Origin: Gemmatimonadales bacterium
Lineage (GTDB): Bacteria; Gemmatimonadota; Gemmatimonadetes; Gemmatimonadales; GWC2-71-9
Assembly (NCBI GenBank): GCA_035559715.1
Contig: DATMAW010000044.1
Coordinates: 1-59,270, forward strand
Direction of reading: 5' to 3'
Length of the DNA: 59,270 bases
Under the pieces are notes generated by a model. The model was not told where the DNA came from and ran no database searches. It saw nothing but the letters and a program-made list of their open reading frames with translations. Positions 1,058 to 51,625 of this stretch are shown here, in pieces. Numbering within the stretch: position 1 is the stretch's first letter; every line of letters starts with the position of its first letter. The position numbers were made by a program, and so were the translations under genes.

Positions 1058-1067
1058 ATAGCGGCAG

Positions 1068-1607: not shown

Positions 1608-1657
1608 CGCCAATCCACCTTCCTTCGGTTTTTCGCGGCGGGTAACTTCCGCCCGTT

Positions 1658-9322: not shown

Positions 9323-9339
9323 GGGAACCGAGGACGACC

Positions 9340-11280: not shown

Positions 11281-11295
11281 ACAGTTGTCCCTTCG

Positions 11296-12657: not shown

Positions 12658-12669
12658 GCCCGCCGCTGC

Positions 12670-14325
12670 CTATCGAGAGGGTAGCCTGCCCGCGCGCTTC
12701 AGGCGCTCCCGCGCGATGAGCCACTGCTGCGGAATGCTCGCAATGTTGCTCACCGCGTAGTACAGGTTGAGGCCGGAGGAGAAGTTGAGGAACAACACCG
12801 TGAACATCACCGGCATGATGTACAGCATCATCTTGGCCTGGGGATTCGGCGGCACGCCGATCTGTCCCACCTTTGAGACCCCGTACATGGAGAGGCCCAT
12901 GACGATCGGAATAATGTAGAGCGGATCCGCACGCGATAGATCCGGCAGCCACAGGAACGGCACGCCGCGGAACTCGATCGTGTTGGCGAACACAAAGAAC
13001 AGGGCGAACAGCACCGGCATCGGGATCAGCATCGGGAGGCATCCGCCGAGCGGGTTCACTCCGTGCTGCTTGTACAGCTTCATCATTTCCTGCTGCATCT
13101 TCTGCGGATCGCTCTTGTAGCGGTCCTGGAGCGCTTTCACTTCCGGCTGAATCGCCTGTAGCGCCGTGCTCGAGCGCATGGCCACCTGATTGAGCGGCCA
13201 CAGGACCGCGCGAACCGCCAGGCCGAACAACACGAGCACCCAGCCATACTCCAGCCGAAGGGTCTCGTGCATCCACAGGAGCACCTGGACGATCAGGATC
13301 GCGAACGGCCGGATGATCGGCCGGAAGATCCAGCCGTATGGATTCACGTCTTCGAACTCGTAGCCGATCCGTGAGAGGCGACGGTATTCCTGCGGCCCCA
13401 CATACACGGCGTGCTCGAAGCTCCCGGCGGGTACGGCGAGCGAGACGGTGACGTGCACCTCGCTCGCCTGCTTCCCGGTGCGCGCTCCCCCAATCGCCAC
13501 GGCGCCCCCGAAGCGAGGCGCGGCTTGGTCCGGCACAAGCACGGCGGCGACGAAGTATTTGGACTTCAGCGCCACCCACTCGAACGGGCCGGCCAGCTCA
13601 CGCCGCTCACCGGGGTCGAGCGAGCCAAAGCCCAGGTTCTCCGTGGAGCGTGCCTTGGTTACGATGCCGTACGACCGGATGTCACCGACGCTGTCGGCCT
13701 CGACCAACCGGACTCTCGGGCCCATGCCGATCAACAGCAGTCCGCCAACGGGAAGTCCCGAGAGCGTTCCATGCACCGTGAACAGGTAGTCGGTGGGCGT
13801 GAACTGGTACGCCAGCCGCACCGATACCGGACCCTTCGCCGCCGTCCACTCGAGCGTGGCACCCGCGCTTCCCACCTCCAAACTGTCAGCGGACGGCTCG
13901 AACTCCCAATCGGACAGGGCCACCGTGTCTCGCCCAATCACGAGGCGATAGCTCTGGAACTCTGAGTTGACGGGAATCAGCTCCGCAGCACCAGAGTCTC
14001 CCGGGGCAAATGATCGATAGCCCTTCGGTCGCGCGCCGACCAGGCGACCGCCGCGAGATGAGAACGCGTAGCGGTAGAGTGGGCTGCTCACGACCACCGT
14101 TCGACTCCCCTTGCTGTCGGCACGCTGCGGGGGAAGTGCGGTGACGGTGTCAGGACGGAGGACCGCCGGAGCCGGGGGGCGCAGCGATGCTGACTCGGCG
14201 GCAGCGGGGCCGCGGGGGCCGGGGGGGCCGGGCTGCGGTGACGGCCGTTTCGGTGGAAACAGGATGCTGGGCAGCAGTGCCACGAGCATCGCGAGCGCGA
14301 TGGCGAGCAGTGTGCGTCGTTCCAC
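12670..14325 (-). CDS. yidC: Membrane protein insertase YidC
   Basis: 551 aa. N-terminal TM, large periplasmic domain, and conserved C-terminal core (NPLGGCLPMLIPMPVLFALF, GLNLYYAVSN). Confidence 0.9.
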   Translation of the reverse strand: MERRTLLAIALAMLVALLPSILFPPKRPSPQPGPPGPRGPAAAESASLRPPAPAVLRPDTVTALPPQRADSKGSRTVVVSSPLYRYAFSSRGGRLVGARPKGYRSFAPGDSGAAELIPVNSEFQSYRLVIGRDTVALSDWEFEPSADSLEVGSAGATLEWTAAKGPVSVRLAYQFTPTDYLFTVHGTLSGLPVGGLLLIGMGPRVRLVEADSVGDIRSYGIVTKARSTENLGFGSLDPGERRELAGPFEWVALKSKYFVAAVLVPDQAAPRFGGAVAIGGARTGKQASEVHVTVSLAVPAGSFEHAVYVGPQEYRRLSRIGYEFEDVNPYGWIFRPIIRPFAILIVQVLLWMHETLRLEYGWVLVLFGLAVRAVLWPLNQVAMRSSTALQAIQPEVKALQDRYKSDPQKMQQEMMKLYKQHGVNPLGGCLPMLIPMPVLFALFFVFANTIEFRGVPFLWLPDLSRADPLYIIPIVMGLSMYGVSKVGQIGVPPNPQAKMMLYIMPVMFTVLFLNFSSGLNLYYAVSNIASIPQQWLIARERLKRAGRLPSR

Positions 14326-15114: not shown

Positions 15115-15141
15115 TTGACTTTTCCACAAACGACCTATAGG
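15115..15141 (+). promoter_or_regulatory. Candidate dnaA promoter (TTGACT-N15-TATAGG) overlapping a DnaA-box-like 9-mer TTTTCCACA (15120-15128)
   Basis: Read directly. The -35 is 6/6-like, the -10 is 4/6, and the spacer is short (15). The 9-mer is 8/9 to the TTATCCACA consensus. Confidence 0.35.
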
Positions 15142-15185: not shown

Positions 15186-16571
15186 ATGGAGTTGTCAGCG
15201 AAAGAGGCATGGTCACGCGTGCTCGAGCGGGCGCGGCGTGAATTGCCGGATGCCACCGTGCGAACGTGGCTGGAGCCGGCGGAGGCGTTGAGGTTGAACG
15301 AAGGGCGGCTGGTCCTGGCCGCCCCGGATCAGTTCGCCGCGGAGTGGAACGCCACCAAGCACGCGCCGCTGCTCTCCCGCCTCGCCGGCGAGGCGCTCGG
15401 GAGTCCGGTGGACGTGGTGTTTCAGGTACAGGAGGAACGTACGCGGCGAGCGCAAATGGACTTCTTCGTTGCCCCGCCCAGTACCGCCGAGGCCGCCGCC
15501 GAGCCGGCCCGTCATTCCACGCCGCTGAACGAGCGGTACACGTTCCGGACGTTCGTCATCGGGAAGTCCAACGAGCTGGCGGCGGCGGCAGCCCACGCCG
15601 TGGCCGAGGCGCCTGGCCGCACGTACAACCCGTTGTTCATCTACGGTGCCACTGGGCTTGGCAAGACGCACCTCATGCAGGCCATCGCCCACGCGGTCCT
15701 CGCTCACAAGAACGGATACCGCGCGGTGTACATGGGGGCGGAGCAATTCATCAACGACGTGATTGAGAGCATCCACTCTCGAACCATGTCGGAGTTCCGC
15801 CGGCGCTACCGCGCTGACGTGGACATGTTCCTCGTGGACGACGTGCATTTCCTGGAAGGCAAGGAAATGACGCAGGAGGAGTTCTTCCACACGTTCAACG
15901 CGCTCCACGAGGCCGGTAAACAGATCGTGCTCACGTCCGACCGGCCGCCAAAAGAGATCCCTGGCCTGGAATCCCGACTGGTGAGCCGCTTCGAATGGGG
16001 GATGGTGGCCGACATCGGCCAGCCTGACCTGGAGCACCGCATCGCGATCCTGCGCAAGAAGGCGGAGCAGGATCACCTGGAGCTCACCATTCCGGATGAC
16101 GTGCTTCGGTTCATCGCCGAGCACGTCCGCAGCTCGGTGCGCGAGCTCGAAGGCTGCATCATCAAGCTTCTGTTGTTCGCGTCGCTCAAACACCGCGAGA
16201 TATCGATCGACCTCGCCCGTGACGCGCTGTCTGACAAGATCCGCCAGAGCGAGGCCGCGGCTGCGACCGGGTCGAGGACCTTGCCCAGCGTCGATCGCGT
16301 CCAGGAGGTGGTCGCTCGGCGGTGGGGTGTGACACCGGAGGGCCTGCGGTCAAAAGCTCGCACCAAGACGCTCACCGTTCCGCGCCAGGTTGCGATGTTC
16401 CTCGCGCGCGACTTACTGGGCATGCAGCTGGTCGAGATTGGGCAGGCGTTCGGCGGGCGCGACCACTCGACAGTGATTCACAGTGTCGCGAAGGTGCAGT
16501 CGCAGCTGTCCGAGGATCGGCAGTTCCGGGATCGCGTGGATTCAGCGCGGCGGGAATTGTCCGCACCGTAG
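15186..16571 (+). CDS. dnaA: Chromosomal replication initiator protein DnaA
   Basis: 461 aa. AAA+ Walker A GATGLGKTHLMQAI, VDDVHFL, and a C-terminal DNA-binding domain (AMFLARDL...GGRDHSTVIHSVAKV). Confidence 0.97.
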   Translation: MELSAKEAWSRVLERARRELPDATVRTWLEPAEALRLNEGRLVLAAPDQFAAEWNATKHAPLLSRLAGEALGSPVDVVFQVQEERTRRAQMDFFVAPPSTAEAAAEPARHSTPLNERYTFRTFVIGKSNELAAAAAHAVAEAPGRTYNPLFIYGATGLGKTHLMQAIAHAVLAHKNGYRAVYMGAEQFINDVIESIHSRTMSEFRRRYRADVDMFLVDDVHFLEGKEMTQEEFFHTFNALHEAGKQIVLTSDRPPKEIPGLESRLVSRFEWGMVADIGQPDLEHRIAILRKKAEQDHLELTIPDDVLRFIAEHVRSSVRELEGCIIKLLLFASLKHREISIDLARDALSDKIRQSEAAAATGSRTLPSVDRVQEVVARRWGVTPEGLRSKARTKTLTVPRQVAMFLARDLLGMQLVEIGQAFGGRDHSTVIHSVAKVQSQLSEDRQFRDRVDSARRELSAP

Positions 16572-16817: not shown

Positions 16818-17927
16818 ATGAAACTGACGGTAGCACGGGAACGACTGCAGGAAGGTCTTGTCGCGGTTGCCGCAAGCGTGCCGGCAAAGACTACGCTGCC
16901 TGTCCTCGCCAACCTGCTCGTTGAGGCCACCAAGGACGGCGTACGCCTGTCCGGGACGGACCTGGACGTGGCCGTGAGCATGGTCATCCCAGCCGATGTC
17001 GACGCCGATGGCGCCGTGACCCTCCCCGCAAAGAAGCTCGTGGAGATCGTTCGCGAGCTGCCGAGTGCCGGGATTCGGATCACGGCGGCAGGTGAGCAGC
17101 GGGTGAACCTGGAGTGTGGCCGCTCCAAGTTCAAACTACTTGGAATCCCCAAGGATGAGTTCCCTCGGTTTCCACCCGTCAAGTTCGACAAGGGGTGGAA
17201 GGTTACCTCCACTGACCTCCAGAAGCTGATTCAACACGTGTCGTTTGCGGCCTCTACGGAGGAAAGCCGGCCCATTCTCAACGGTGTGCTCTGGGAGCTG
17301 CGAGCCGACCGGATGCGAATGGTGGCGACGAACGGGCACCGGCTGGCCCGTCTCGAGGTACCTGTGTCCGGCGGCAAGGAAAGCGCCGAGCTCATCGTGC
17401 CGCCCAAGGCCCTGGAGCAGGTGCGCCGGCTGTTCGGACCGAAAGATGAGATCGAGGTGTCGCGGTCGGAGAACCACCTGGGTTTCCGGAGCGGACAAAC
17501 GCTCGTGTTCAGCCGCCTGATTGAGGGCCCTTATCCCAACTATGAGCAGGTCATTCCGCGTGAGAACGATCGCGTGGCCACGGTGGACCGCCAGACGCTC
17601 TCTGCGGCACTGCGCCGCGTTGGCGTTGTTGCGAGCGACCAGACACACCGCGTGCGGCTGGCGTTCAGCGCGGGCACATTGCGGTTTTCCGTGAACACGC
17701 CGGATCTCGGTGAAGCGCACGACGAAATCGCCGTGATGTACGAAGGGGACCCGCTGGAGATCGGCTTCAATGCGAGCTACCTGCTCGAGATTCTGAAGTA
17801 CATGCCTACGGACGAGGTGAGGATCACGTTCAAGGCGCCTGAGCGGGCGGCCACGGTGGAGCCCGTCGGGTGGGACGACAGCGCCTCGTACCTCTGCCTG
17901 GTAATGCCGCTGCGTCTGGTAGACTGA
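16818..17927 (+). CDS. dnaN: DNA polymerase III beta sliding clamp
   Basis: 369 aa. Position after dnaA, three-domain length, and typical N-terminus (MKLTVARERLQEGL) and C-terminus (YLCLVMPLRLVD). Confidence 0.95.
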   Translation: MKLTVARERLQEGLVAVAASVPAKTTLPVLANLLVEATKDGVRLSGTDLDVAVSMVIPADVDADGAVTLPAKKLVEIVRELPSAGIRITAAGEQRVNLECGRSKFKLLGIPKDEFPRFPPVKFDKGWKVTSTDLQKLIQHVSFAASTEESRPILNGVLWELRADRMRMVATNGHRLARLEVPVSGGKESAELIVPPKALEQVRRLFGPKDEIEVSRSENHLGFRSGQTLVFSRLIEGPYPNYEQVIPRENDRVATVDRQTLSAALRRVGVVASDQTHRVRLAFSAGTLRFSVNTPDLGEAHDEIAVMYEGDPLEIGFNASYLLEILKYMPTDEVRITFKAPERAATVEPVGWDDSASYLCLVMPLRLVD

Positions 17928-39172: not shown

Positions 39173-39649
39173 GTGTTCACCGTGATTTCCATCTATCCCT
39201 ACCTCCCGGGATCGGAGACCGCAGCGTTTCGCGGGATCTCCATCTTCCTCGGGGTTCTCGTGTCCTTCAGTTCGGCCTCGGCCGTCGGCAACATCATCGC
39301 CGGCGTGGTGATGACGTACATGCGTCCATTCCAAGTCGGGGATCGCGTGAAGATCGCTGACACGGTGGGTGACGTCGTGCGGAAGACGTTGCTCGTGACG
39401 CGCGTGCGCACGACCAAGAACGTGGAGGTCACTATCCCGAACTCCATGGTCCTGTCGAGCCATATCATCGACTTCAGCTCGGCGGTCGCACAGGCGAGCG
39501 TGGAGATCATGTCGCCTCACTACAGCGCGCTCCGCGACGGGAATCAGACGACGGTCCCGGCGGAGTACTTGTCGAAGTCGTATCGGCCTCCCGCGTTTCG
39601 GCTGCTTCAGACGGACCAGGTGGCGGAGCCCCGCTCGGGGGCGACGTGA
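39173..39649 (+). pseudogene. MscS-family mechanosensitive channel remnant (N-terminal TMs and most of the alpha/beta domain missing)
   Basis: The 158-aa ORF keeps only TM3 plus the beta domain (GISIFLGVLVSFSSASAVGNIIAGVVMTYMRPFQVGDRVKI...TIPNSMVLSSHIIDFSS). It then jumps to a family C-terminal tail (VEIMSPHYSALRDGNQTTVPAEYL). No TM1/TM2 coding is visible upstream in any frame. Confidence 0.5.
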
Positions 39650-41904
39650 CCGTGGACCGACGACCGGCCTCGGATCAGGTTTCCCGTGCCCGGACTGGGC
39701 AGGGCCGGCTCGTCGTGGTGAGCAACCGGTTGCCGTTTCACACGGTCCGGCGGCGGGAGCGCCTCATCATGGCACCGGCACCGGGCGGACTCGTGTCAGC
39801 CCTGGAGGGGGTGCTGGGTCACTACGAGGGCGTGTGGATCGGCTGGTCCGGGGTGGAGCGTGATGCCCCCGCCGCAGCCAACCTCCGGCTGCCACGCGGA
39901 GAGCGGATGCGATATCGAGCCGTGCCGCTCTCCGGTCATGAGGTGGATCTCTACTACGGCGAGTTCGCCAACCGGACGCTGTGGCCGCTGTTTCATTACT
40001 TCGTGGGGCGCACTCGCATTGAGGGCCGCAGTTGGCGCGTGTACGAGCGGGTGAACCAGCGCTTCGCAGAGGTGGCATTCGCCGAGGCGCAGGAGGCCCA
40101 GCTTGTGTGGGTCCACGACTATCAATTGCTGCGGGTACCACACCACTTGCGACGGCTCCGTCCCCGCTGTGCCATCGGGTTTTTCCTGCACATCCCCTTT
40201 CCGGATGTCGAGGTGTTTCGCGTCTTACCGTGGGCGCCGGAACTGCTCCGTGGCTTGCTGGCGGCGGACCTCGTCGGCTTTCAGGTGCCAAAGTACGCCA
40301 CGCACTTTCTGGCGTGCGTGGAGGAGTTGCTGGGCCTCGAAGTGGACCGAGCAGCTGGTGTGGCGCACTTCGAAGGGCGGGACGTGGCCGTCCAGGCGCA
40401 CCCAATCAGCATTGACGTCGAACGCATTGCGCGGATGGCGGCTCTCGCTCCCGCCGCCAGCCGCGACCCGGATGAACCGAAGACCGTGCTCGGGGTGGAC
40501 CGACTGGATTACACCAAGGGGATTCCCGAGCGGCTGCTCGCCGTCGAGCGGTTCTTCGAGCGATATCCTGCGTGGCGAGGGCGCGTGCGGTTCACGCAGA
40601 TCCTGGTGCCGAGCCGCGAGCGCGTGGCTGAGTACCGGGACCTGAAACGGCAGATAGACGAGATGATCGGCCGAATCAACGGTCGTCTGTCCGACGGGGG
40701 TTGGAGTCCCATCCGGTACCTGGTTCGCTCGCTGCCGACTGAGGAGCTTGTGACCCTGTATCGGCTGGCTGATGTGGCACTGGTAACGCCGCTCAGGGAC
40801 GGGATGAACCTTGTCGCCAAGGAGTACGTCGCGGCGAATGCAGGGGGCAACGGCGTGCTGATCCTCTCGGAACTCGCCGGGGCCGCGCACGAGCTTCCTG
40901 AGGCTCTCATTGTCAATCCGTTCAACATTGATGCCGTCGCGGAGGCGCTGCACGATGCGCTGTCCATGCCCGATGCCGAACGTCGAGCGCGCATGACGGC
41001 GCTGGCTGACCGGGTGCGGCGCAATGACGTGCATTGCTGGACGCGACGATTCCTCGACGCGGCCCGGGAGGCCACGGAGCCGCGGCGTCGGCCGCGGCCG
41101 TCGCCGGCCGACCAGGTGGTCCGACGCCTGGCGCCGTGGCTGGTGCAGCGGCCGGTGCTGGCGCTGTTCCTCGACTACGACGGGACCTTGACGCCCATTG
41201 TGGACCGGCCGGAGGATGCGGTGTTGGCTCCGGAGGCCCGAGAGATTCTGGCGCAAGCCGATCGCGCCGGTCACGTCGAGACGGTGGTGGTATCAGGTCG
41301 GTCGTTGGAGGATATCCGCGCGCGTGTGGGCCTTCCGGAATTGACCTACGTTGGCAATCACGGGCTGGAAATCGAGGGTCCTGGAATCGCTTTTCGGCAT
41401 CCCGACGCCATGCGTTACGAGGACGTCGTGGCGCGCGCTGCGGAAGCTCTCGAGGCGCTGCCGGTGCGCGGCGGTCGGGTCGAGCGCAAGGGTTTGACCC
41501 TGAGCTGGCACGTGCGCGACATCCCCCCCCGCGAGCGCCCCCTCGCCGAGCAGTCCGCGGCAGCCGTCCTGCGACGCGCGGGGCTGGTAGTCACTACGGG
41601 CATCGACGTCATCGAGGGGCGACCGCCGATCGACTGGCACAAAGGCAGTGCGGTGCTCCACGTGTTGGTTCATCGGCATGGTCCGGCGTGGCCCACGCGC
41701 GTGCGGGCCCTGTATGTGGGGGATGACCGGACCGACGAAGACGCGTTCCGCTCGCTGCGCGGATTGGGCCGGTCGATTCGCGTGGGTGGCGTGGCGTCGG
41801 TCGGCGGCGACCGTGGCGCCGTCCTGGCTCTCCCGGATCCCGCCAGTGTGCTGCAGATGGTGCGCCGGCTCGCGTCGCGCGCGCTGCTGGAGGCCGCGGG
41901 ATGA
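39646..41904 (+). CDS. otsA: Bifunctional trehalose-6-phosphate synthase / trehalose-6-phosphate phosphatase (OtsA-OtsB fusion)
   Basis: 752 aa. GT20 part (VVVSNRLPF, VWVHDYQLLRVP, GVDRLDYTKGI, DGMNLVAKEY). HAD phosphatase part (LFLDYDGTLTPIV, YVGDDRTDEDAF). Confidence 0.9.
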   Translation: MTVDRRPASDQVSRARTGQGRLVVVSNRLPFHTVRRRERLIMAPAPGGLVSALEGVLGHYEGVWIGWSGVERDAPAAANLRLPRGERMRYRAVPLSGHEVDLYYGEFANRTLWPLFHYFVGRTRIEGRSWRVYERVNQRFAEVAFAEAQEAQLVWVHDYQLLRVPHHLRRLRPRCAIGFFLHIPFPDVEVFRVLPWAPELLRGLLAADLVGFQVPKYATHFLACVEELLGLEVDRAAGVAHFEGRDVAVQAHPISIDVERIARMAALAPAASRDPDEPKTVLGVDRLDYTKGIPERLLAVERFFERYPAWRGRVRFTQILVPSRERVAEYRDLKRQIDEMIGRINGRLSDGGWSPIRYLVRSLPTEELVTLYRLADVALVTPLRDGMNLVAKEYVAANAGGNGVLILSELAGAAHELPEALIVNPFNIDAVAEALHDALSMPDAERRARMTALADRVRRNDVHCWTRRFLDAAREATEPRRRPRPSPADQVVRRLAPWLVQRPVLALFLDYDGTLTPIVDRPEDAVLAPEAREILAQADRAGHVETVVVSGRSLEDIRARVGLPELTYVGNHGLEIEGPGIAFRHPDAMRYEDVVARAAEALEALPVRGGRVERKGLTLSWHVRDIPPRERPLAEQSAAAVLRRAGLVVTTGIDVIEGRPPIDWHKGSAVLHVLVHRHGPAWPTRVRALYVGDDRTDEDAFRSLRGLGRSIRVGGVASVGGDRGAVLALPDPASVLQMVRRLASRALLEAAG

Positions 41905-43748
41905 CTTACCAGCCCATCGGCGATTACGGGATCATCGGCGACCTGCACACGGCCGTGCTGGTCGGCCGCAACGGATCGATCGATTGGTGTTGTGCCCCGC
42001 GCTTCGATTCGCCCAGCGTGTTCGCAGCGATTCTGGACGACGGACGCGGGGGGCGATGGTCGATCGCGCCGCTCGGCAAGTGGACGTCGGAACAGCGCTA
42101 TCTGCCGGCCACCAACATCCTCGAGACCGCGTTTCACGCGGACGGGGGCGGCGTGATTCAGGTGACCGATTTCATGCCGGTAGGTCCGGCCCGGCAGGGA
42201 CGGAGCGAGATCCATCGGCGCGTGCACTGCCCGCGGGGCGCCGTGACGCTGGCGTCGGTGTTCGAACCGCGTTTCGACTACGCGACCCGGGAGGCGATCT
42301 TCACACGACGCGCGTCCGGGCTCCTCGCCACGGATCATGAAGACGACGTGGCGACGCTCGCGTGGACGGGCGATGTGGAGTGGCGCCACGAGCCCGGACG
42401 GGCCATCGGACGGGTGTCGGTACGCGAGGGCGAGACGGTCTGGTTCGTCATGCGGTTCGACGACGACGAAGTCCATCACATTGATGCCTACGAGTCACAG
42501 AACAAGCTCGATGCAACTGCGCGGTGGTGGGACGCCTGGTCTTCCCGCATGTGCTATGATGGCCCCTATCGCTTGGAAGTGCAGCGCAGCGCCCTGGCGT
42601 TGAAGCTCTGCTGTTACGAACCAACCGGGGCGATCGTCGCGGCTCCCACGATGTCCCTCCCGGAAGAAGCGGGGGGCAGCCGCAACTGGGACTACCGCTA
42701 CACGTGGCTCCGCGATTCGTCGTTCGTGTTGCACGCGCTCAACGTGTTGGGGTACAACGACGAAGCCAACGCGTTCATGCGGTTTCTCAAGCGGGTGTGC
42801 CGTCGCAAGGACGGACGCCACCTGCAGATCATGTTCGCGGTTGATGGCCAGCGAGACATCGCGGAACGGCATTTGGAGCACCTGGAGGGATACCGCGGCG
42901 CCAGGCCGGTGCTGGCCGGGAACGGCGCCGCCGGCCAGTTCCAGCTCGACGTGTACGGGGAGGTGTTGGACACCGCGGCCATCTGGGCGAGGCATCACCA
43001 GATGACCGAAGGGCTGTGGAAGGTGGTGCGTGACCTGGCTGACTGGACGGCCGCGCAGTGGCGCCAACCGGACTGGAGCATCTGGGAGGCCCGCCAGGAG
43101 CCCAAGCACTACGTGTTCAGCAAGGTGATGGCCTGGGTGGCGCTCGACCGCGCGACGCGACTGGCAGAGCGTCTCAAGTTGCCGGGCGATGTGGCACGAT
43201 GGCGGCGGGAGGCGGACGAGCTCCATGCCGAGGTGCAACGCCGTGGTTGGGACCCGGTGCGTGAGACGTTCGTCCAAGCGTACGACGAGCCCCAGGTCGA
43301 CGCCGCGCTCCTCGTCATTCCCAAAGTCCGGTTCTTGCCGCGAAGCGACCCGCGCGTCCGGTCCACGCTCGCCGCCATCCGCCGTGAGCTGGCGTCGGCG
43401 TGCGAAGACCTGATTTACCGCTATCGCGCGGCCGACGGCCTCACCGGCGGCGAAGGAGCATTCGTCGCGTGCAGTTTCTGGATGGTGCAGAACCTCGCCA
43501 TGGTAGGCGAGTTCGCGGAGGCCGAGCGGCTGTTTCGTAATCTGCTGCGGCGCGCGAATCATGTGGGACTGCTGGCCGAGGAGATCGATCCCGCAACCGG
43601 TGAACAGCTGGGGAACTTCCCGCTGGCGCTGTCCCACGCGGCGGCGATCAACACCGCCTACATCCTGGAGCATCTGCGCGGAGATGCCGCGCCGCACGGG
43701 ACCGCGCATTCCAAACCGACTGCCATGGAAAGCTGGCCACTAGCGTAG
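41901..43748 (+). CDS. Glycoside hydrolase family 15 (glucoamylase/trehalase-like)
   Basis: 615 aa. IGDYGIIGDLHTAVLVGRNGSIDWCC, NWDYRYTWLRDSSF. ATG overlaps the otsA-otsB stop (ATGA). Confidence 0.9.
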   Translation: MTYQPIGDYGIIGDLHTAVLVGRNGSIDWCCAPRFDSPSVFAAILDDGRGGRWSIAPLGKWTSEQRYLPATNILETAFHADGGGVIQVTDFMPVGPARQGRSEIHRRVHCPRGAVTLASVFEPRFDYATREAIFTRRASGLLATDHEDDVATLAWTGDVEWRHEPGRAIGRVSVREGETVWFVMRFDDDEVHHIDAYESQNKLDATARWWDAWSSRMCYDGPYRLEVQRSALALKLCCYEPTGAIVAAPTMSLPEEAGGSRNWDYRYTWLRDSSFVLHALNVLGYNDEANAFMRFLKRVCRRKDGRHLQIMFAVDGQRDIAERHLEHLEGYRGARPVLAGNGAAGQFQLDVYGEVLDTAAIWARHHQMTEGLWKVVRDLADWTAAQWRQPDWSIWEARQEPKHYVFSKVMAWVALDRATRLAERLKLPGDVARWRREADELHAEVQRRGWDPVRETFVQAYDEPQVDAALLVIPKVRFLPRSDPRVRSTLAAIRRELASACEDLIYRYRAADGLTGGEGAFVACSFWMVQNLAMVGEFAEAERLFRNLLRRANHVGLLAEEIDPATGEQLGNFPLALSHAAAINTAYILEHLRGDAAPHGTAHSKPTAMESWPLA

Positions 43749-43856
43749 CCCGGCCCCGCGGTGCGCACTCTGGTGCCGAATTTCGGTGGAGCCCTATGAC
43801 CGTACTGCGGCCCGATGGGCTTCTCGGGGTCCACGGGTTTGTGAGGCTGTAGTGGC

Positions 43857-44384
43857 GTGGCCGTGACGCGCGTCCGCTATACCTACCATCGGCCGGGAAA
43901 GCCTTCGGCGATCTATGACGAGTGGCTTGTCCTTGACCGACCGGACGTGAAGGTCCTGCTCCAGGACCAGTACCGCGGGCCCGGGTTGCTTGCCGGCGAC
44001 GAGCGGATTCAGGAATCCGGCGCTCCCATGGTTTGGTTCGTGTTTCCGGAGCGCTGGTACGACATCGCCCGATTCCACTTGCTGGACGGCACCTTCACTG
44101 GCTGGTACACGAACCTGACGACCCCCGTCCGGATCTCTGGCGATTCGTGGTCCGCAACGGATCTGTTTCTCGACCTCTGGACACCCATGACCGGTGGGTC
44201 CATGTGGCTCGATGAGACCGATCTCGAAACCGCCACGCGGGCGGGGACCATCGACCGCGTCACGCGCCAGCGCATCGACAACGAGCGCGCCCTGATTGAG
44301 CTACAGTTGAAGCTTGGCGCCTGGCCGCCCCCGATCACGAGGGACATTGACCTGGCTCAGGCGCTGCGCTTGCGCGGCGCTTGA
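43857..44384 (+). CDS. DUF402-domain protein
   Basis: WYDIARFHLLDGTFTGWYTNLTTP...DLFLDLW...LDETDLE pattern. Confidence 0.65.
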   Translation: MAVTRVRYTYHRPGKPSAIYDEWLVLDRPDVKVLLQDQYRGPGLLAGDERIQESGAPMVWFVFPERWYDIARFHLLDGTFTGWYTNLTTPVRISGDSWSATDLFLDLWTPMTGGSMWLDETDLETATRAGTIDRVTRQRIDNERALIELQLKLGAWPPPITRDIDLAQALRLRGA

Positions 44385-44453
44385 GCGTTTTGCACCACTC
44401 TGCAATGAAATGATGACGGCGCGACACGGACGCGGCCTTACCCTGGGCCCGCC

Positions 44454-47400
44454 ATGGATCGCGCCGCGCTTCTCTCATCACTCCGCCGGGTAAGATCGGC
44501 GAGAGATCTCGGGCCCGTCTTCGGCGTGCTGGGATACGCCCTGACAGACGAGCCGTTCGAAGGTGACGCCGTTGTCGTGGCCCGGTGGCGGGGCTTTCGG
44601 GTCATCGCCTCTCCCGGCGATCCGGCCCGCGACCGTGTGCGACAGCTCGCTGCCGCGCTCGCCCGTGCCGGCGAGCGGGCGCTGGCAGTTGGCATCGAGA
44701 GCCAGGCGCTGGTGATTGCCGCGCCCCGGATCGGGGCCGGTGGCTCGACGCGGCTGTTGGTCGTCCCGTGCCGCGAGCCATCACCGCTCGCCGTGCAGCA
44801 ACTCGAGGATCTCGCCCCCCGAGCACGCGAATCGGCACTGGCGCACGCACTGCGCGTGGTGGAGGTGCTGTCCAGCGAGGCAGCCGGCCAGCGGTTCTTC
44901 ACCGCGTTCCTCTCCATACTCGAGCGCATGACGGTCTCCCTGACCGTCCAGGGGCCGAAAGCCGACCGGCGGATGGCCGTCCTGTTACAGCTGTCGCGGG
45001 TCTTGTTCCTCTATTTCGTGCAGGCAAAGGGGTGGCTCGACGGGCGGACCGACTATCTCCGCAGCGAACTCGACGACGCGCTGAGACGGGGCAAGAACTT
45101 CCATCGCACGCGCTTGCAGCCCCTGTTCTTCGGTACGCTGAATCGGCGAGTCGAGGAGCGATCCCGCCGCACGCGCGGGGCAATCCCGTACTTGAACGGA
45201 GGGCTGTTCGAGCCCCACGCGGTGGAGCGCCGGCTCGGCCCGATCTCGATATCGAACGCGCTGTGGCGTGAGGCGTTTGACGAGGTCTTCGAGCGATTCC
45301 GCTTCTGTGTGCGGGAGTCGGAAGAGGTGAACGCGATCGCGCCTGACATGCTCGGCCACGTGTTCGAGCGGGTCATGGATGAGGATGAGCGACACGCCAG
45401 CGGCGCATTCTACACGCCGGAAGCCGTGGTCCGAGACATCGTGAGCGCCACAGTCGAGACCGCGCTCGTGGGCCGCCGTGCCATCTCGGCGGACCTGGCC
45501 CGTCGCGCGCTCGCCGGCGAATCCGTGGGCCCAGACGAGGCCGCGCGCGTGAGTCGAGCCTTGGCAGAGCTGCGCATCCTGGATCCGGCGGTTGGGTCGG
45601 GCGCGTTCCTGCTCGGAGCGCTCGAATGGCTCACCCAGCTCAGGGTCAGGCTCGATGGCAGTGGCGCAGACGAGCCCGACGCTCGACGGCGAATCCGCCT
45701 CCAGGTATTGCGGAACAACCTGTTCGGCGTGGACCAGTCCCCCGTCGCCGTCCGCCTGGCCGAGTTGAGGCTCTGGCTGGCCGTCATCGCGGACGATCCC
45801 ACGACGGACATCGGTCGCGTTGCACCGTTGCCCAATCTGGACGGCGTCGTGCGACAAGGCGACTCGCTGCTGGATGCGATTGCTGCGCTTGGCACATTGG
45901 TACCGGACGGCGTGGCTCGGGTGGCCGTGCGGCCGCCGACGATACGGGGCATTGCCGAGGCTCGCGCGGCGGTGTTCGAGGCGCGTGGGAAGGCGCGTGG
46001 CGCGGCCATGCGACGTTTGCGAGACGCGGAACTTGCCTGGGCGGAGCAGGCCATCACCGCGAGCATCATGGCCGTCGATCGAGCGAAGCGAGAGCTGGCG
46101 GTCCTGGCCGGCGGCCGCGATCTGTTCGGTCGTCGCAGCGGCCTCACCCGTGAACAGCGGGCCCGGTATGATGTGCTCGACCAGCATCGTGCCGCCCTCG
46201 CACAAGCCGCCCAGGCAGTGGCGGACGGCTCAGTACCGTTTTTCGCCTTTGAGGTCCACGCGCCCGACGTGATCGCGGCCGGAGGATTCGACGCCGTGGT
46301 CGGAAACCCGCCGTGGGTGCGCGCCGAGCGGTTGCCGGCGGCAATGCGGCGCGCGCTGGCAGCCAGGTTTCGCTGGTGGAGGGCCACGCCCGCTCGCGGC
46401 TTCGGTCATCTGCCAGACCTCTCGGTGGCGTTCTTCGAGCGAGCCCTGGAGCTGACCTCACCCGGAGGGGCTGTGGGTCTTCTTGTCCCCAGCAAGGTCG
46501 TGACGGCGGCGTACGGGCAGGCCTTACGGTCCCACCTCGTGCGCGAAACGACGATCAGCTACTTGCACCGCGTGCCGGATCGAGATGCCCGGTCGTTTGG
46601 CGCCACGACCTATCCGCTGGTCGCGATCGTCAAGAAACGGCCGCCCGAACCCAGTCACCACGTGTACCTCGGCTTCGACAGGACGGCGTGTGTAACGCAA
46701 CGATCGCTCGGTGGCGTCTGGGTGCTGGTTCCCGATCGGGAACGGGACGCGCTCGTGCAGTTCCACGCCGCTGGCGTTCCGCTCGCGCGGCTCGCGCCGC
46801 CATCCCTCGGTGCCAAGAGCGGGGCGGACCGGCTGTTCGTTGGCGAACTCGAGCAAGTCGACGGCACCGTGGCCAGGGTGAAGCTCGACAGCGCCAGGGT
46901 GTCGCTGGAGGCGAGCCTGCTCCGGCCGGCGCTGCGCGGTCGAAACCTGCGGCCGTTCGAGGCAGCCGCGACTCGCGTGCTATTCTGCCCCCATCGGCCA
47001 GGCGGCGACTGCCTCACGCGACTGCCCCCGAGGGCTGCGGCATACGTCGCAGCCCGCGAGCGTCGCTTCGCGAGCAGGGCCGACTTCCGCTCCGGTCCCG
47101 TGTGGACACTGTTCCGCATCCGCGCAGCGCTGAGCGCCAACCGTGTGGTCTGGCCGGACATCGCGCGGCGCCCGGTGGCCGTGGCGCTGGATGAAACGCC
47201 GCTGGCCAACGCGGTGCCACTCAACACGTGTTACGTGGCGGTGGCGCCGGACCGAGACACGGCGCTCGCGATCACGGGCGTGTTCAACTCTACCTGGGCG
47301 GCAGCATCCGCCCTGGCCACTGCCGATGAGGCGCGAGGCGGATACCGCCGAATCAACGCGCGGGTGTCGGGGGCGTTCCCGGTGCCGGCACGGGGACCGG

Positions 47401-47549
47401 CGACCGCCGCCCTGTGCGCGCTCAGCGCGGCTGCTCACGATGGAAACCACCCGGGTCAGGACGATCTCGACGACGCCGTGGCAGAAGCGCTCGGGCTTCC
47501 TTCTGCCGTCCGCGCCGCCCTCCGCCGTCTGGCCGCGTATCGGCGCTGA
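44454..47549 (+). CDS. Eco57I/PglX/YeeA-style gamma-class N6-adenine DNA methyltransferase with large N- and C-terminal regions; no recognisable nuclease
   Basis: 1031 aa. [10 protein letters not shown] and [11 protein letters not shown]-terminal signatures, [10 protein letters not shown], motif [12 protein letters not shown] (45576-45608), motif IV NPPW (46305-46316), and a roughly 400-aa TRD-like tail. Confidence 0.85.
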
Positions 47550-49794
47550 GGCGCTGCAGCAGGTGCGAGAGCCCGTGGCGTGGTGCCTCGGGCCCGGCAC
47601 GCGTGTCCTTCCGGACGCCGTGCGGGACGTGATCCGCAGCGCGTTGCCGGGGCCTGCCGATCAAACCTGGGATCCGCCCGGCTGGTTGCTTCCCCATCAG
47701 CGACCCGCCGCGCAACGGCTTGCGGCGCGCCTGGAGATCTTCGGCGGAGCGCTACTGGCCGATGCGGTCGGCCTGGGCAAGACCTACGTGGCGCTCGCGC
47801 TGGCCAGCCGCGCGGAGCGGCCGGTCGCGACGGTTCCCGCGGCGCTCCTGGCGCAATGGGAACGGACCGCCCGGCGCGCACGTGTCCCCCTTGCCCTCGT
47901 GACCCACGAAGCGCTGAGCCGAGGCGCTGCGCTGCCCCGAGGCGACCTGGTCATTGCGGACGAAGCACACCGGTTCCGCAATCCCGAAACGCGGCGCTAT
48001 GACGCGCTGGCACGCGGCACGCTCGACGCGAGAGTACTCCTGCTCACGGCAACGCCGTTGGTCAACCAGGCGGCGGACGTGATCCACCTCCTGCGCCTGT
48101 TCCTGGTAGATCACGCGCTCGCCCTGTATGGCGTCCCTTCGTTGGAGCGGGCGGCGGCGGGGAACCGACACGACGAACTGGCGCACGCGCTGAGCGTGGT
48201 GGCCGTGGCTCGGACGCCGCTCGCGGCGCGCGTCGAAGAGCGCGTGCCGGCGGTGCAAGATGGGGCAACGTACGACGATGCCTGCCTCCCGCTGCCCGCG
48301 CTGCGAGATCTCGTGCGCCGAATCGACAACCTGGCGTTCCCGACGCTCGGGGAGCCCAACGCTGCCCAGCTCCTGCGGCTTCATCTCCTGAGTCGGCTCG
48401 CCTCATCCGCGCCGGCACTCGCGGGGACGCTGCGGCGCCATCGGAACTACCTGGAACGAGCCATCGCCGCGGCCAGGCGCGGCGAACGAATCCGGCGGCG
48501 GGTTCTGATGGAACTGCTCGACGACGAGGACGGCGCACAGCTGCTCCTGGAATTCGGTGCGGAGGTGCCGGAAGCCGTAGCGCCGCACCCGTCAGCGCTG
48601 CTCGCCGAGCTTGAGCGCGTCCAGGAGTTGCGGGATCTGGTCCGCAATCACTGCACACATGGTGGCGCAGGCGACCTGAAGGCCGGCCGGCTCCGGGACG
48701 TCCTCGCGAGACGTAACGGAAGCAAGACCATTGTGTTTACCACAGCCGTCGCGACCGCGCGCCACCTGGCGCGACTCCTTGCCTGGCAGCGTATCGTGGT
48801 CGTGACGGGGCACGGCGCGCAGATTGCCTCAGGACCACTAGCGCTCGCGGAGGCGTTAGAGCTATTCGCGCCCAGTGGCCAGGGCGCACGCGCCCCGGCA
48901 CGAGCGGCGGTGGCGGACGTGCTGGTCGCCACCGACCTCGCGAGTGAGGGCTTGAACCTTCAGGACGCCAATGCCGTGGTGCACTACGACCTGCCGTGGT
49001 CGCCGCTCAGGCTCACGCAGCGACTGGGGCGTATCGCGCGCCTCGGCTCGCTTCACCGTGCCGTGGACGTCGTGTGGTTCATGCCTGCGCCGCCGTTGGC
49101 GGAGCGTCTTGCCGTCTCGGCGCGCCTGGCGGTGAAGGCACGGGCGCAAGTCGCCGTCGGCACTCCCGCCACGAGCACCGTGGGGCAGGCACTTCTCGCC
49201 GGTGGCCTGTTCGATTGGCGGGAGCCGTGCAGCCGGGCCGGCGGCTTCCGTGTGGGCGCCCCCTGCTTCGCGGTCGTGTCCGGGCCGCGCGCCGCCCTTT
49301 TCGTTCTTGCGTGGCAGGTTGGAACGAGAGTCGTGCCCGAGGTCTTGGCGATGGAAGGGGATCCTCCCGAGGTCGTGCTGGAGGAGCGCCGCGTGCAACA
49401 GCTGGCGCAGGCCCTCATGTGCGCACCCGTTCTCCGGGGCGCCCCCCCAAGCCTTTACATGGACACGCTCCGCCGGGTCGTGCGCCACCGACTGGCCTCC
49501 GCGCAGACCGGCCCGCGGGACGCCGAGACCCGTCGTCTGGTTCGGCGAATCGTCCGATACGCGAGAGTGGCGGCCAGGAAGCGATCCATCGGGACGCTTG
49601 GCGCCTTAGACCAATGGCTCGATGCCCTGTTTGGCGGGCTGCGGGTCGGCGCCTTGCGTGAACTCGCTGCCGGGTTGGACCACCGTGGCGTACCGCCTGC
49701 AGCCGCGGGAGCCGGCGCATCGGGATGCATGCCGGCGGTCACACTGGCTGCCGCGTTGTTCGGTGATCGGCCCGAGTCGCCAAATCGCTCATAG
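47440..49794 (+). CDS. SNF2-family (SF2) helicase with uncharacterised ~270-aa C-terminal extension
   Basis: In frame with track ORF 47143..49794. LLPHQ, Walker A GLGKT (47770-47784), DEAH (47959-47970), [22 protein letters not shown], and [11 protein letters not shown]. The start is ambiguous: ATG 47440 (110-nt overlap with the methyltransferase) or GTG 47563 (14 nt after its stop). Confidence 0.8.
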
Positions 49795-49848
49795 ATCCTA
49801 TATTGGTTCGGACGGACGTTCCACGGCACGGGTGACCACTCCGCTTCG

Positions 49849-50547
49849 ATGGGAGCCCCCATGAACCTGAGCCACCTGTTCTCGAAGTTCGCCGGATTCT
49901 CCCCCATGTCCCACCACCCGAAACTCGAGCCACGATTCTGGGTGTATTCCACGGCGGCGTACATCATCCCCGTGGTCTCGCAGGTCGTGTTCCCGAGCGA
50001 GGAGGCGGGACTGTACGACGAATTGGTGTGGCTGATCACGCTGGCGCCCGCGTTTCTTCTCTCGCTGCACTTCGGCCTTCGGGGGGCGTTGGCCGGTCTC
50101 TTGATGGGGACTGCTCTGTTCATCGCCGTACAACTGTCGGTCTCGCTCAACTATACGCCGGACGACTGGCGCATCACTGTGCCGATCTACGTGGCATACG
50201 GCGTCCTGGCGATCAGCGTCGGGTGGCTGTCAGAGCAGTTGCACGAGCATTACAACCGGGCGCTGGAGAACGAGCGCCTCGCGGGCGTGGGGCAGGTGGC
50301 CGTCACCCTGCGGCACGAAGTGAACAATGCGCTCACCGCGATCGTGGCCGAGAGTCATCTGCTCGCGTCTGCGCCGGACGGACTCACGGAGCAGCAAAAA
50401 CTCTCTGCCACGGCGATCCGGGACGCGGCCATGCGGATCGCCACAGACCTGGCGAAGCTGACGGATCTCTCGAATGCGCCGACCAAGGAGTACATCCCGG
50501 GCGGCACCCGGATGATCGACCTGCAGTCCGCGCGGTCACGTTCGTAA
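49849..50547 (+). CDS. Membrane protein with histidine-kinase DHp (HisKA-like) domain but no ATPase domain
   Basis: About 4 TM helices, then GQVAVTLRHEVNNALTAIVAESHLL (H-box). The ORF ends about 75 aa later with no N/G1/G2 boxes. The next gene is convergent. Confidence 0.55.
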   Translation: MGAPMNLSHLFSKFAGFSPMSHHPKLEPRFWVYSTAAYIIPVVSQVVFPSEEAGLYDELVWLITLAPAFLLSLHFGLRGALAGLLMGTALFIAVQLSVSLNYTPDDWRITVPIYVAYGVLAISVGWLSEQLHEHYNRALENERLAGVGQVAVTLRHEVNNALTAIVAESHLLASAPDGLTEQQKLSATAIRDAAMRIATDLAKLTDLSNAPTKEYIPGGTRMIDLQSARSRS

Positions 50548-50590
50548 GGCGTCGGCCTGTGCAGGACGCGGTGCGGGAAGGCGGGCCGTG

Positions 50591-51625
50591 TTAGCGAACC
50601 AGCCCGTGCAAGATGAGATAGCTCACGCCGGCAATGCCGGCGGAGGCCGGGATGGTGAGCACCCACGCGACGAGGATTCGGCCGGCCACCACCCAGCGCA
50701 CGGATGACACGCGATTCGCGGCTCCCACGCCGGCGATAGCACCCGTGATTGTGTGGGTCGTACTGACGGGAATGCCGTAAGTCGAAGAGACAAAGAGCGT
50801 CGCCGCGCCGCTGGTTTCGGCACAGAAGCCGCCGAAAGGCCGAAGCTTGGTGATTCGCTGACCCATCGTCTTCACGATGCGCCAGCCGCCAGCCATCGTC
50901 CCCAGGGCAATCGCCGCATGGGCGGAAAGAATAACCCATGTGGGGACCGTGTCCGCCGTTGTTAAGTGGAAGGCGCGAAGCGGGAACGTTTCGAACAGGC
51001 CCTGACTTGCCACAAGCAGCGCCACAATAATTCCCATGGTTTTCTGCGCGTCATTGGTGCCGTGGCCCAGCGAGTAGAGCGCCGCCGAGATGAGCTGCAG
51101 CGCTCGAAACACGCGGTCCACACGGCGTGGCGTGGTCCGCCTCAGCGCCCAGGAAAGCCCCACGGTCAGTGCCAGCGCGAGCGCGAGGCCCATGACAGGT
51201 GCCACGACGATGAAGACCAGGGTCTTGATCCAGCCTTGCGGAATGAGGGCGGAAAACCCTGCCTTGGCCAACGCCGCTCCGGCGTAGCCTCCCACAAGCG
51301 CGTGTGACGAAGAGGTTGGCAGTCCCCACCACCACGTCATGAGATCCCACGTGATGGCCCCGAGGAGACCACCCAACACCACGATGGGATCCACTACGCT
51401 GAGGTCTATCATGCCCTTGCCGACGGTTCGGGCGATGGCCGTTCCGAACGTGAAAGCGGCCACGAAGTTCCAGAAAGCCGCCCAAAACACCGCGGCAAAC
51501 GGCGATAACACCCGAGTGGAAACCACCGTGGCGACGGAGTTGGCCGCGTCGTGGAACCCGTTGACGAAGTCGAAGATCAGCGCGACCAGAACGATCGCAA
51601 GCACAAACCAAACGGTGTCCGCCAT
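50591..51625 (-). CDS. pit: Inorganic phosphate transporter, PiT family
   Basis: GFHDAANSVATVV and GHGTNDAQKTMGII repeat signatures. Confidence 0.9.
   Translation of the reverse strand: MADTVWFVLAIVLVALIFDFVNGFHDAANSVATVVSTRVLSPFAAVFWAAFWNFVAAFTFGTAIARTVGKGMIDLSVVDPIVVLGGLLGAITWDLMTWWWGLPTSSSHALVGGYAGAALAKAGFSALIPQGWIKTLVFIVVAPVMGLALALALTVGLSWALRRTTPRRVDRVFRALQLISAALYSLGHGTNDAQKTMGIIVALLVASQGLFETFPLRAFHLTTADTVPTWVILSAHAAIALGTMAGGWRIVKTMGQRITKLRPFGGFCAETSGAATLFVSSTYGIPVSTTHTITGAIAGVGAANRVSSVRWVVAGRILVAWVLTIPASAGIAGVSYLILHGLVR

Follow-up and report, generated by a model that had tools for sequence, protein, structure and literature searches.

The chromosomal replication-origin region of a Gemmatimonadales bacterium (GenBank assembly GCA_035559715.1, contig DATMAW010000044.1, positions 1 to 59,270 of the forward strand; this whole stretch of 59,270 nucleotides is called the window in the following) contains a two-gene unit in which the gene for a PglX/MmeI-type N6-adenine DNA methyltransferase (MTase) is directly followed, on the same strand, by the gene for a compact SNF2-family ATPase (the helicase). 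The catalytic motifs of both proteins are intact, neither protein contains a nuclease, the two genes are strictly paired and vertically inherited, and the target-recognition domain (TRD) of the MTase is under purifying selection. On balance, these observations favor the view that the pair, which has no nuclease, descends from or is a sister of the restriction-like systems that combine a IIG-type MTase with a SNF2 helicase carrying an HKD (phospholipase D, PLD) nuclease domain, that it has been domesticated, and that it writes a lineage-wide N6-methyladenine (m6A) mark with a function in housekeeping rather than in defense. A prior description of this MTase-SNF2 pair was not found in the literature searched.

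The features of the unit are the following (aa, amino acids; nt, nucleotides).

44454-47549, + strand: gene for a gamma-class N6-adenine DNA MTase of the PglX/MmeI type, 1031 aa, recognized from its open reading frame (ORF), Pfam, an AlphaFold2 (AF2) model, and orthologues
44454-44831, + strand: alpha/beta N-terminal domain (NTD) of the MTase, about aa 1-126, with the model topology H-H-E-E-E-H-E-E-E-H
44832-45353, + strand: N-terminal helical bundle of the MTase, aa 127-300, with motifs at aa 188-197 and 245-254
45576-45608, + strand: S-adenosylmethionine (SAM)-binding motif I, aa 375-385
45879-46238, + strand: coiled-coil insert of 120 aa within the MTase domain, aa 476-595
46305-46316, + strand: catalytic motif IV, NPPW, aa 618-621
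46659-47408, + strand: TRD, aa 736-985, beta-rich in the model
47563-49794, + strand: gene for the compact SNF2-family ATPase, 743 aa, with a GTG start 14 nt past the stop codon of the MTase gene
47770-47784, + strand: Walker A motif GLGKT of the helicase, aa 70-74
47959-47970, + strand: Walker B motif (motif II) DEAH, aa 133-136
Helicase aa 159-165: LLLTATP motif
49018-49050, + strand: helicase motif at aa 486-496
49078-49791, + strand: C-terminal region (CTD) of the helicase, aa 506-743, its fold being given by the model

The MTase matches the Pfam families Eco57I (1.9e-20) and N6_Mtase (6e-10) and, weakly, MmeI_Mtase, MmeI_hel, and DUF7814. Its AF2 model, which was built on 20 orthologues (pLDDT 85, pTM 0.81), shows five parts: an alpha/beta NTD, a helical bundle, an MTase fold split by an insert, a beta-rich TRD, and C-terminal helices. 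When the model was compared with the PDB by Foldseek, the BREX enzymes PglX/BrxX came first (8q56, 9ewz; E ~1e-16; ~1000-1070 aligned columns), followed by CamA, M.BseCI, MmeI, BpuSI, and DrdV. In motif I the residues D377, P378, A379, G381, S382, G383, A384, and F385 are invariant in the 20 orthologues, and N618, P619, P620, and W621 of motif IV are likewise invariant. The helical bundle (helices at 128-279 in the model) is with a mean pairwise identity of 64% among the most conserved segments and is the counterpart of the "helicase spacer" of MmeI and of the N-terminal bundle of BrxX. The corresponding identities are 61-65% for the catalytic lobes, 47-60% for the TRD, 43% for the NTD, and 37% for the coiled-coil insert, which is thus the least conserved segment. 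The insert (helices 494-509, 513-553, and 566-590 in the model) lies within the Pfam Eco57I match, which covers aa 421-706 yet only 164 profile positions, and it is a candidate partner-docking or regulatory element.

The NTD of the MTase occupies the position that the PD-(D/E)xK nuclease has in type IIG enzymes. However, there is no conserved D, E, or K in this domain across the 20 orthologues and not a single invariant column across 25 wider relatives; a Pfam match at E<=10 was not obtained, and its profile gave only noise when run against the sequences in the PDB. The PADLOC IIG model PDLC03601 aligns to the MTase only from aa 127, which corresponds to profile position 189. Since conserved acidic and lysine residues, invariant columns, and a family match are all missing, the NTD is non-catalytic. 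Judging by the strand order in the model, it is possible that it represents a degenerate nuclease fold.

The helicase matches the Pfam families SNF2-rel_dom and Helicase_C. Its start is placed at GTG 47563 because the N-termini of its orthologues (n=22) begin with (M/V)REPLxW; by the same criterion starts at ATG 47440 or GTG 47143 are upstream read-through inside the 3' end of the MTase gene. In the AF2 model (pLDDT 83, pTM 0.83) the SNF2 core extends from aa 41 to 506, and only ~45 residues lie ahead of RecA lobe 1. Invariant are G70, G72, and K73 of the Walker A motif (22 orthologues), D133, E134, A135, and H136 of motif II, and Q486, R487, G489, R490, R493, L494, G495, and S496 of the motif at aa 486-496.

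The helicase CTD is modeled as a short linker followed at aa 560-740 by a sheet of five strands (568-575, 577-586, 589-598, 603-605, and 725-736), the last of which is separated from the fourth by an insert of four long helices (608-706). In a Foldseek search against the PDB the top match of the helicase was RapA, with ~980-1000 aligned columns, as compared to ~570 for other SNF2 cores, and the topology of the CTD agrees with that of the alpha+beta domain of the BrxHII type as described in PMC12839542. By the fold of the model, the tail of the helicase is a RapA/BrxHII-type C-terminal domain. In sequence, by contrast, neither the CTD nor the SNF2 insert has a Pfam match at E<=10, and phmmer with the CTD against 1.84 billion representatives retrieved only 97 proteins, all <=805 aa and all with the domain at the C-terminus. 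Because just these orthologue-sized proteins match, the CTD sequence is unique to this orthologue family.

Nuclease families were found neither in the MTase nor in the helicase with Pfam, NCBIfam, or PADLOC, and the helicase CTD has neither a nuclease motif nor nuclease-like conserved residues. Also tblastn with the PLD domains of two nuclease-bearing relatives (loci L081 and L082, see below) gave no match in the window or in the loci from Gemmatimonadota and Thermoanaerobaculia. An earlier note on this DNA, made from the letters of the window alone, had described a 1031-aa MTase with motif I, NPPW, N-terminal helical signatures, and a TRD-like tail, directly followed on the same strand by a compact SNF2 helicase, and had seen no nuclease in either protein. 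The ORF, Pfam, and the model bear out the first of these statements, the Pfam matches of the helicase the second, and the blank Pfam, NCBIfam, PADLOC, and PLD tblastn results the third. Of the two helicase starts considered there, GTG 47563 stands and ATG 47440 falls. The two regions that the note could not recognize indeed lack a Pfam match, but they are now placed by fold, one as an alpha/beta NTD and the other as a RapA/BrxHII-type CTD.

The pair is widely distributed. More than 120 full-length relatives of the MTase (~1020-1045 aa) share 51-99% identity with it, those that are named being from Gemmatimonadota metagenome-assembled genomes (MAGs), and the same holds for the helicase; with a Gemmatimonadaceae orthologue as query another 4606 proteins were retrieved at E<=1e-30. 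A profile of carriers, in which each GTDB species was represented by one genome, gave at least 599 matching stretches, of which the best 80 loci by identity to the window MTase were analyzed. These best 80 of at least 599 comprise ~65 Gemmatimonadota loci (34-55% MTase identity), 13 Thermoanaerobaculia/Acidobacteriota loci (33-36%), and one locus each from a "Deltaproteobacteria" MAG, from Fraserbacteria (29%), and from Nostoc (25%). The helicase gene is found 3' of the MTase gene, on the same strand and adjacent, in every best-80 locus with enough downstream DNA, and this adjacency is retained in three phylum-level groups. The intergenic gap of 14 nt in the window is replaced by overlapping ORFs in L084, L066, and L034.

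Not only the pair but also its surroundings are conserved. The gene order S9 peptidase - DUF402 - MTase - helicase (- PHO4/PhoU_div) is seen again in loci with 47-84% MTase identity, and in many loci at 38-45% identity PHO4 and PhoU_div lie a few kb 3' of the pair. Even in a Gemmatimonadaceae locus with ~35% identity (L084), genes for GT20, trehalose phosphatase, and GH15 are located just 5' of the pair, as in the window. Thermoanaerobaculia have a conserved neighbor of their own, which is divergently oriented 5' of the MTase gene. In neighbor-joining trees the MTase and helicase clades are identical and track taxonomy, and the pairwise distances of the two proteins are correlated (r = 0.87, n=66 loci). 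The G+C content at third codon positions (GC3) is 0.80 for the MTase gene and 0.79 for the helicase gene, compared to 0.75-0.85 for the neighbors in a window with a G+C content of ~67%; the pair is therefore similar in composition to its surroundings. Among 2.9 million viral contigs there was only one close relative (35% identity, helicase downstream); the remaining viral matches are 22-34% identical and have mostly the SNF2 gene 5' of the MTase gene, which is the reverse order. Because of the conserved synteny, the native composition, the congruent and taxonomy-following trees, and the near absence from viral contigs, we conclude that the pair is a core chromosomal locus, vertically inherited across the Gemmatimonadota and again in Thermoanaerobaculia. 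The comparison of neighborhoods that had been proposed in the earlier note thus shows a pair that is conserved as a unit and sits at a fixed syntenic place rather than in a variable island.

The specificity domain of the MTase has been preserved together with the locus. Compared with an orthologue of 84% identity, the ratio of nonsynonymous to synonymous substitution rates (dN/dS) is 0.18 overall and 0.22 and 0.075 in the TRD, the lowest value (0.075) being that of its second half. A DEA-GGYRR-N block at aa 958-968 of the TRD is invariant. Replacement of the TRD was not indicated, even between close relatives. Purifying selection acts on this conserved domain, which is neither swapped nor diversifying. 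Recognition modules of restriction, BREX, and BR enzymes diversify (PMC12839542, and general knowledge). The TRD of the window family, being conserved, is the opposite of these. In this respect the window MTase is similar to the solitary lineage-conserved MTases CamA, Dam, and CcrM, which are without a cognate nuclease and have a specificity domain conserved across the lineage. CamA occurs as a solitary enzyme throughout the species Clostridioides difficile, and the products of CamA, Dam, and CcrM are lineage-wide epigenetic marks. Solitary MTases act alone, however, whereas the window MTase is strictly coupled to a SNF2 ATPase.

Systems that are homologous to the window pair in both proteins and have the same gene order are the pairs of a IIG-like MTase and an HKD(PLD)-SNF2 helicase (PADLOC C3a139 "HKD+Snf2" and REase_MTase_IIG; NCBIfam NF042964). 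The loci from Fraserbacteria (L081) and Nostoc (L082), which are the outgroup in the MTase tree as well as in the helicase tree, have helicases of 1086-1103 aa with an N-terminal PLDc_2 nuclease (228-272 bits with PADLOC "HKD+Snf2") and MTases that match the IIG models with 435-447 bits over their full length including the TRD. In contrast, the window MTase reaches only 154 bits on the IIG model, from aa 127 to 704, and the window helicase with its 743 aa has no PLDc match at all; on NF042964, a model for a PLD anti-phage protein, it scores 86 bits versus a cut-off of 1100. Also, the hosts of HKD-SNF2 pairs are scattered, whereas the window family is lineage-wide and syntenic. The connection to restriction-modification (RM)-like systems that was drawn in the earlier note is real through these distant relatives, but it is an evolutionary one only. 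In the Nostoc locus two small ORFs (176 and 152 aa; 9039-10095), the second with a weak zinc-ribbon match, lie between the genes for the MTase and the PLD-SNF2 helicase. They have no PADLOC match; possibly they are further components of the version that carries the nuclease.

The relationship to such pairs raises the question of whether the unit still acts against phages or plasmids. The MTase could mark self, and the complex could block unmethylated DNA without cutting it (either by a BREX-like exclusion or by stripping off replication or transcription proteins), or the effector could be encoded elsewhere. Although we consider this unlikely, it is the alternative that fares best. The closest sequence models of the MTase are REase_MTase_IIG (1.3e-45) and DrmMI (4e-30), those of the helicase are DrmD, DpdE, and BrxHI, the distant relatives, with their PLD nuclease, are true RM-like pairs, and the MTase fold is most like that of BREX PglX. 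All family cut-offs are, however, missed widely, as becomes evident when the known systems are compared in turn.

With the type IIG/IIL enzymes (MmeI, BpuSI, and Eco57I type) the window MTase has in common that a gamma-class N6-adenine MTase and a TRD are combined in one polypeptide, but their N-terminal PD-(D/E)xK domain with the catalytic D...(D/E)xK is lacking. Type ISP enzymes (LlaGI/LlaBIII) unite an Mrr-like nuclease, an SF2 motor, an MTase, and a TRD in a single polypeptide, whereas in the window there are two genes separated by a stop codon and a 14-nt gap, with neither Mrr nor PD-(D/E)xK. BREX PglX/BrxX is the best overall structural match of the MTase, which includes the N-terminal region, the insert-bearing MTase domain, the TRD, and the C-terminal helices; yet PglZ, BrxC, BrxA, BrxB, and BrxL are all missing beside the pair, and on the NCBIfam models BREX_1/2/5/6_MTaseX the MTase scores 31-52 bits versus cut-offs of 400-900. 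The BREX-associated helicase BrxHII shares with the window helicase the RapA-like C-terminal alpha+beta domain, but it pairs with a different, BrxXI-type MTase, and its Tudor and inactive restriction endonuclease (REase) domains are missing from the window helicase.

In class 1 DISARM (DrmMI plus DrmD) an Eco57I-type N6-adenine MTase adjoins a SNF2 helicase as it does here, and DrmMI and DrmD are among the best PADLOC/NCBIfam models. The window helicase, however, scores only 115 bits versus a cut-off of 610 on the DrmD model NF038317 and 77 versus 950 on NF038318, and DrmA, DrmB, and DrmC, which class 1 DISARM requires, do not accompany the pair. An Eco57I-type MTase beside a SNF2 helicase is also encoded by yeeA-yeeB of Bacillus subtilis. 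BR/Hma systems consist of a DUF499 ATPase, a DUF1156-type MTase with the TRD after strand 2, and a SNF2 helicase-nuclease, to which type 3 adds PglZ and iSTAND (PMC12839542; PMC11232893). They resemble the window in the pairing of an MTase with a SNF2 helicase of the RapA-like kind, and in type 3 BR systems the helicase is likewise without its former nuclease. The differences are that the window has no DUF499 ATPase, PglZ, or iSTAND and that its MTase is of the Eco57I/MmeI type. The BR/Hma helicase has the domain order Tudor - SNF2 - inactive REase - CTD; in the model of the window helicase the SNF2 core and a CTD of matching topology were seen, and a Tudor or a separate REase-like domain was not. 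Because the defining parts of BREX, DISARM, and BR/Hma and the PLD domain are missing, the pair represents the theme "IIG-type MTase + SNF2" in a form devoid of nuclease and effector.

The search for partner genes was not restricted to the immediate neighbors. The flanking genes have no PADLOC match, and the eight ORFs of at least 600 aa in the 59-kb window (MutS, SLT, PolA, S9 peptidase, OtsAB, GH15, the MTase, and the helicase) do not include BrxC, PglZ, DrmA, DUF499, or HsdR. A defense partner gene is absent for 44 kb upstream and 9 kb downstream of the pair and in the syntenic loci; neither the window nor the syntenic loci contain DrmA, DrmB (DUF1998), or DrmC (PLD), and genes of the PglZ/BrxC type were not seen in L001, L002, L084, and L128 either. 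The earlier note, which had reported that BREX, DISARM, and type I partners are not adjacent, was correct in this. Its proposal of a minimal methylation-dependent self/non-self module is not supported, however: the pair is a vertically inherited core locus, a finding that the note itself had named beforehand as speaking against the proposal. The alternative given there, an epigenetic or repair module, accounts for the evidence better than defense does. Two more points speak against defense: throughout a phylum the pair keeps its chromosomal position amid housekeeping genes, and its TRD is under purifying selection rather than diversifying. A specificity frozen throughout a phylum should make escape easy for phages.

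It has also to be considered that the SNF2 protein is the main actor, namely a RapA-, Mfd-, or RadA-like remodeler of transcription, replication, or repair complexes, for which the MTase serves mainly as a sequence-specific DNA-targeting subunit, methylation being secondary. RapA is indeed the best match of the helicase in the PDB both in structure and in sequence, and in the window the core locus is near the genes for MutS, DnaA, PolA, and a DinB-like polymerase. But in other genomes the pair is not in synteny with the nearby repair genes, the helicase scores 58 bits on the RapA model NF003426 versus a cut-off of 576, and the N-terminal Tudor-like domains by which RapA binds RNA polymerase are missing, the ~45 residues ahead of RecA lobe 1 being all there is. 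The catalytic motifs of the MTase are invariant in all orthologues, which indicates that methyl transfer itself is selected. We therefore regard this explanation as improbable, and as more so than a role in defense. That the pair is a decaying, functionless RM-like remnant, or that the two genes are adjacent by coincidence, has a very small probability indeed: a nuclease domain is lost relative to the distant relatives, but this reading is contradicted by purifying selection (dN/dS of 0.18 overall, all catalytic motifs invariant), by full-length conservation in thousands of clusters, and by the strict pairing with congruent trees in three phylum-level groups.

For the favored reading, a domesticated pair that writes a lineage-wide mark, the following mechanism can be envisaged. 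The two proteins would be co-translated from one transcript and would then assemble into a complex. The MTase with its single TRD would read one short, probably asymmetric site, which would be the same lineage-wide, as PglX, MmeI, and CamA read theirs. ATP hydrolysis by the SNF2 protein would load or activate the MTase or move it along the chromosome such that m6A is written. As there is no nuclease or effector, the output would be a lineage-wide m6A mark, i.e., a genome-wide epigenetic signal used for regulation or for replication or repair bookkeeping, and not the cleavage of foreign DNA.

That methylation depends on the motor is probable by analogy. BrxX binds its site but needs BrxB, BrxC, and BrxZ to methylate it, and its NTD, its CTD, and the insert in its MTase domain have been proposed to be cis-inhibitory (PMC11842806); the window MTase has extra elements analogous to these. 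MtsC of the MANTIS system requires loading onto DNA by an AAA+ ATPase (bioRxiv 10.64898/2026.09.23.753747), and in fungal Dnmt5 the SNF2 domain is reported to be required for methylation (bioRxiv 10.1101/2020.01.05.895227). With respect to the eukaryotic systems, Dnmt5 and DDM1/HELLS with the DNMTs, in which DNA methylation is reported to need a SNF2 ATPase or to be licensed by it, the analogy is functional only: Dnmt5 and the DNMTs are cytosine-5 MTases that act in a nucleosomal context and are not homologous to the window MTase.

In its more far-reaching form the proposal is that the Gemmatimonadota and, independently or anciently, the Thermoanaerobaculia have a core ATP-driven methylation machine in which a SNF2 motor is obligatory for the phylum-wide m6A mark of a PglX-type MTase. 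This we put forward tentatively, as a possibility somewhat less probable than not. If true, it would be a bacterial counterpart of the SNF2-coupled methylation of eukaryotes (Dnmt5, DDM1/HELLS), and a clear instance in which a restriction- or BREX-like module has been domesticated for the biology of the chromosome. It would also place a further type of lineage-wide epigenetic mark of bacteria next to those of Dam, CcrM, and CamA. To our knowledge, modules of an MTase and a motor (type ISP, BREX, DISARM, BR/Hma, and MANTIS) are known only as mobile defense with a nuclease or PglZ effector. Here there is a two-gene version without effector; it belongs to the core genome of an entire, little-studied phylum of soil bacteria, and its specificity domain is frozen. 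Should methylation require the motor, nature would offer no simpler system for asking why methylases of the PglX type depend on ATPases, a question that is open for BREX and has only recently been addressed for MANTIS. For annotation it follows that in these phyla housekeeping genes can be labeled wrongly by automated "defense" calls from the DrmD, DrmMI, or IIG models.

It should be noted that several points weigh against the picture of a domesticated housekeeping pair. The assignment of the RapA-like CTD comes from the span of the Foldseek alignment of a model and from the matching topology, and not from a domain-level superposition. The PLD domain may have been lost here or gained in the outgroup, which consists of two loci. 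There is no named cultured strain among the MTase matches listed, and a methylome of a member of the Gemmatimonadota was not found in the literature searched. Nuclease-free defense does exist, and an effector may be encoded elsewhere in the genome.

Some of the loci deserve separate mention. In L083, from a Gemmatimonadaceae MAG, the helicase homology is split across small called genes (246 and 274 aa; 11219-12827). Judging by its contig name L083, an MFD contig like L009 and L039, is a long-read (nanopore) assembly; if so, frameshift errors are a more likely cause than a real pseudogene. In L072 a 1000-aa "helicase" ORF has 300 N-terminal residues that are R/P-rich and were discarded as a spurious extension. 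In ~30 IMG/VR contigs with the reverse gene order (within L086-L125) the helicase lies at ~700-3900 and the MTase begins at ~3800-5001; these pairs are possibly a phage-borne module of the DrmD/DrmMI or DarB-like type.

The divergent neighbor of the Thermoanaerobaculia is a protein of ~555 aa (in L060 at 3950-5614, - strand) with a weak match to type I phosphodiesterases (Phosphodiest) of the alkaline-phosphatase clan. A gene of this length is at the same position in L061, L063, L064, L066-L068, L071, L073, L077, L078, and L080. Since PglZ belongs to the same clan the protein was considered as a PglZ-like effector, but it was dismissed because there was no PADLOC match at all. The ORFs on the + strand 5' of the MTase gene in Thermoanaerobaculia and in L072 (568-662 aa), which looked like a third gene of the unit, are rich in R, D, E, and G and have no Pfam match; those of the Thermoanaerobaculia are antisense shadows, because the real gene lies on the opposite strand.

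The window is the replication-origin region of the chromosome. The minimum of the cumulative GC skew is near 13-15 kb, origin-region genes (MutS, YidC, MnmE, DnaA, and PolA) are present, and the two-gene unit lies ~29 kb from dnaA amid housekeeping genes. It is preceded by genes for an S9 peptidase, an OtsA-OtsB fusion, GH15, and DUF402 and followed by those for a HisKA-like protein, PHO4, and PhoU_div. Besides the MTase and helicase genes the following features were recorded.

3129-6119: MutS
11296-12657, - strand: MnmE
12670-14325, - strand: YidC
15186-16571, + strand: DnaA, which MnmE and YidC face
16818-17927: candidate ORF, probably DnaN, following DnaA
26722-29475: PolA
43857-44384, + strand: DUF402 gene (Pfam DUF402, 1.6e-12), directly 5' of the MTase gene
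49849-50547: weakly HisKA-like (DHp) protein of 232 aa (Pfam 22.8 bits versus a cut-off of 26.9), with no ATPase domain

These two flanking genes, DUF402 and the DHp-like protein, are those named in the earlier note, the HisKA match being sub-threshold. DUF402 is found 5' of the MTase gene within 1-3 kb or less, in most cases directly upstream, in L001-L005, L007, L009, L010, L016, L026, L046, L076, and L128. It was not found adjoining the pair in the Gemmatimonadales clade with 38-45% identity or in Thermoanaerobaculia; DUF402 is a clade-specific neighbor outside the conserved core of the pair. The HisKA-like gene is directly 3' of the helicase gene also in L010, L026, and L046 (57-63% identity) and is absent in L001 and L002. 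The genes for the OtsA-OtsB fusion (GT20 plus trehalose phosphatase) and for GH15 with a trehalase-like N-terminal domain (39646-43748), which lie between the S9 peptidase and DUF402, are missing at the equivalent position in the closest relative, L128. A scan of 43600-50700 for promoters and terminators gave nothing useful. A single DnaA-box-like sequence, TTTTCCACA, is present at 15120, 58 nt 5' of the dnaA start; as 33 of 100 shuffled sequences also contain a match, it is not significant alone. The MutS ORF as listed begins with TTG, 141 codons ahead of MutS domain I, and the true start is probably further downstream.

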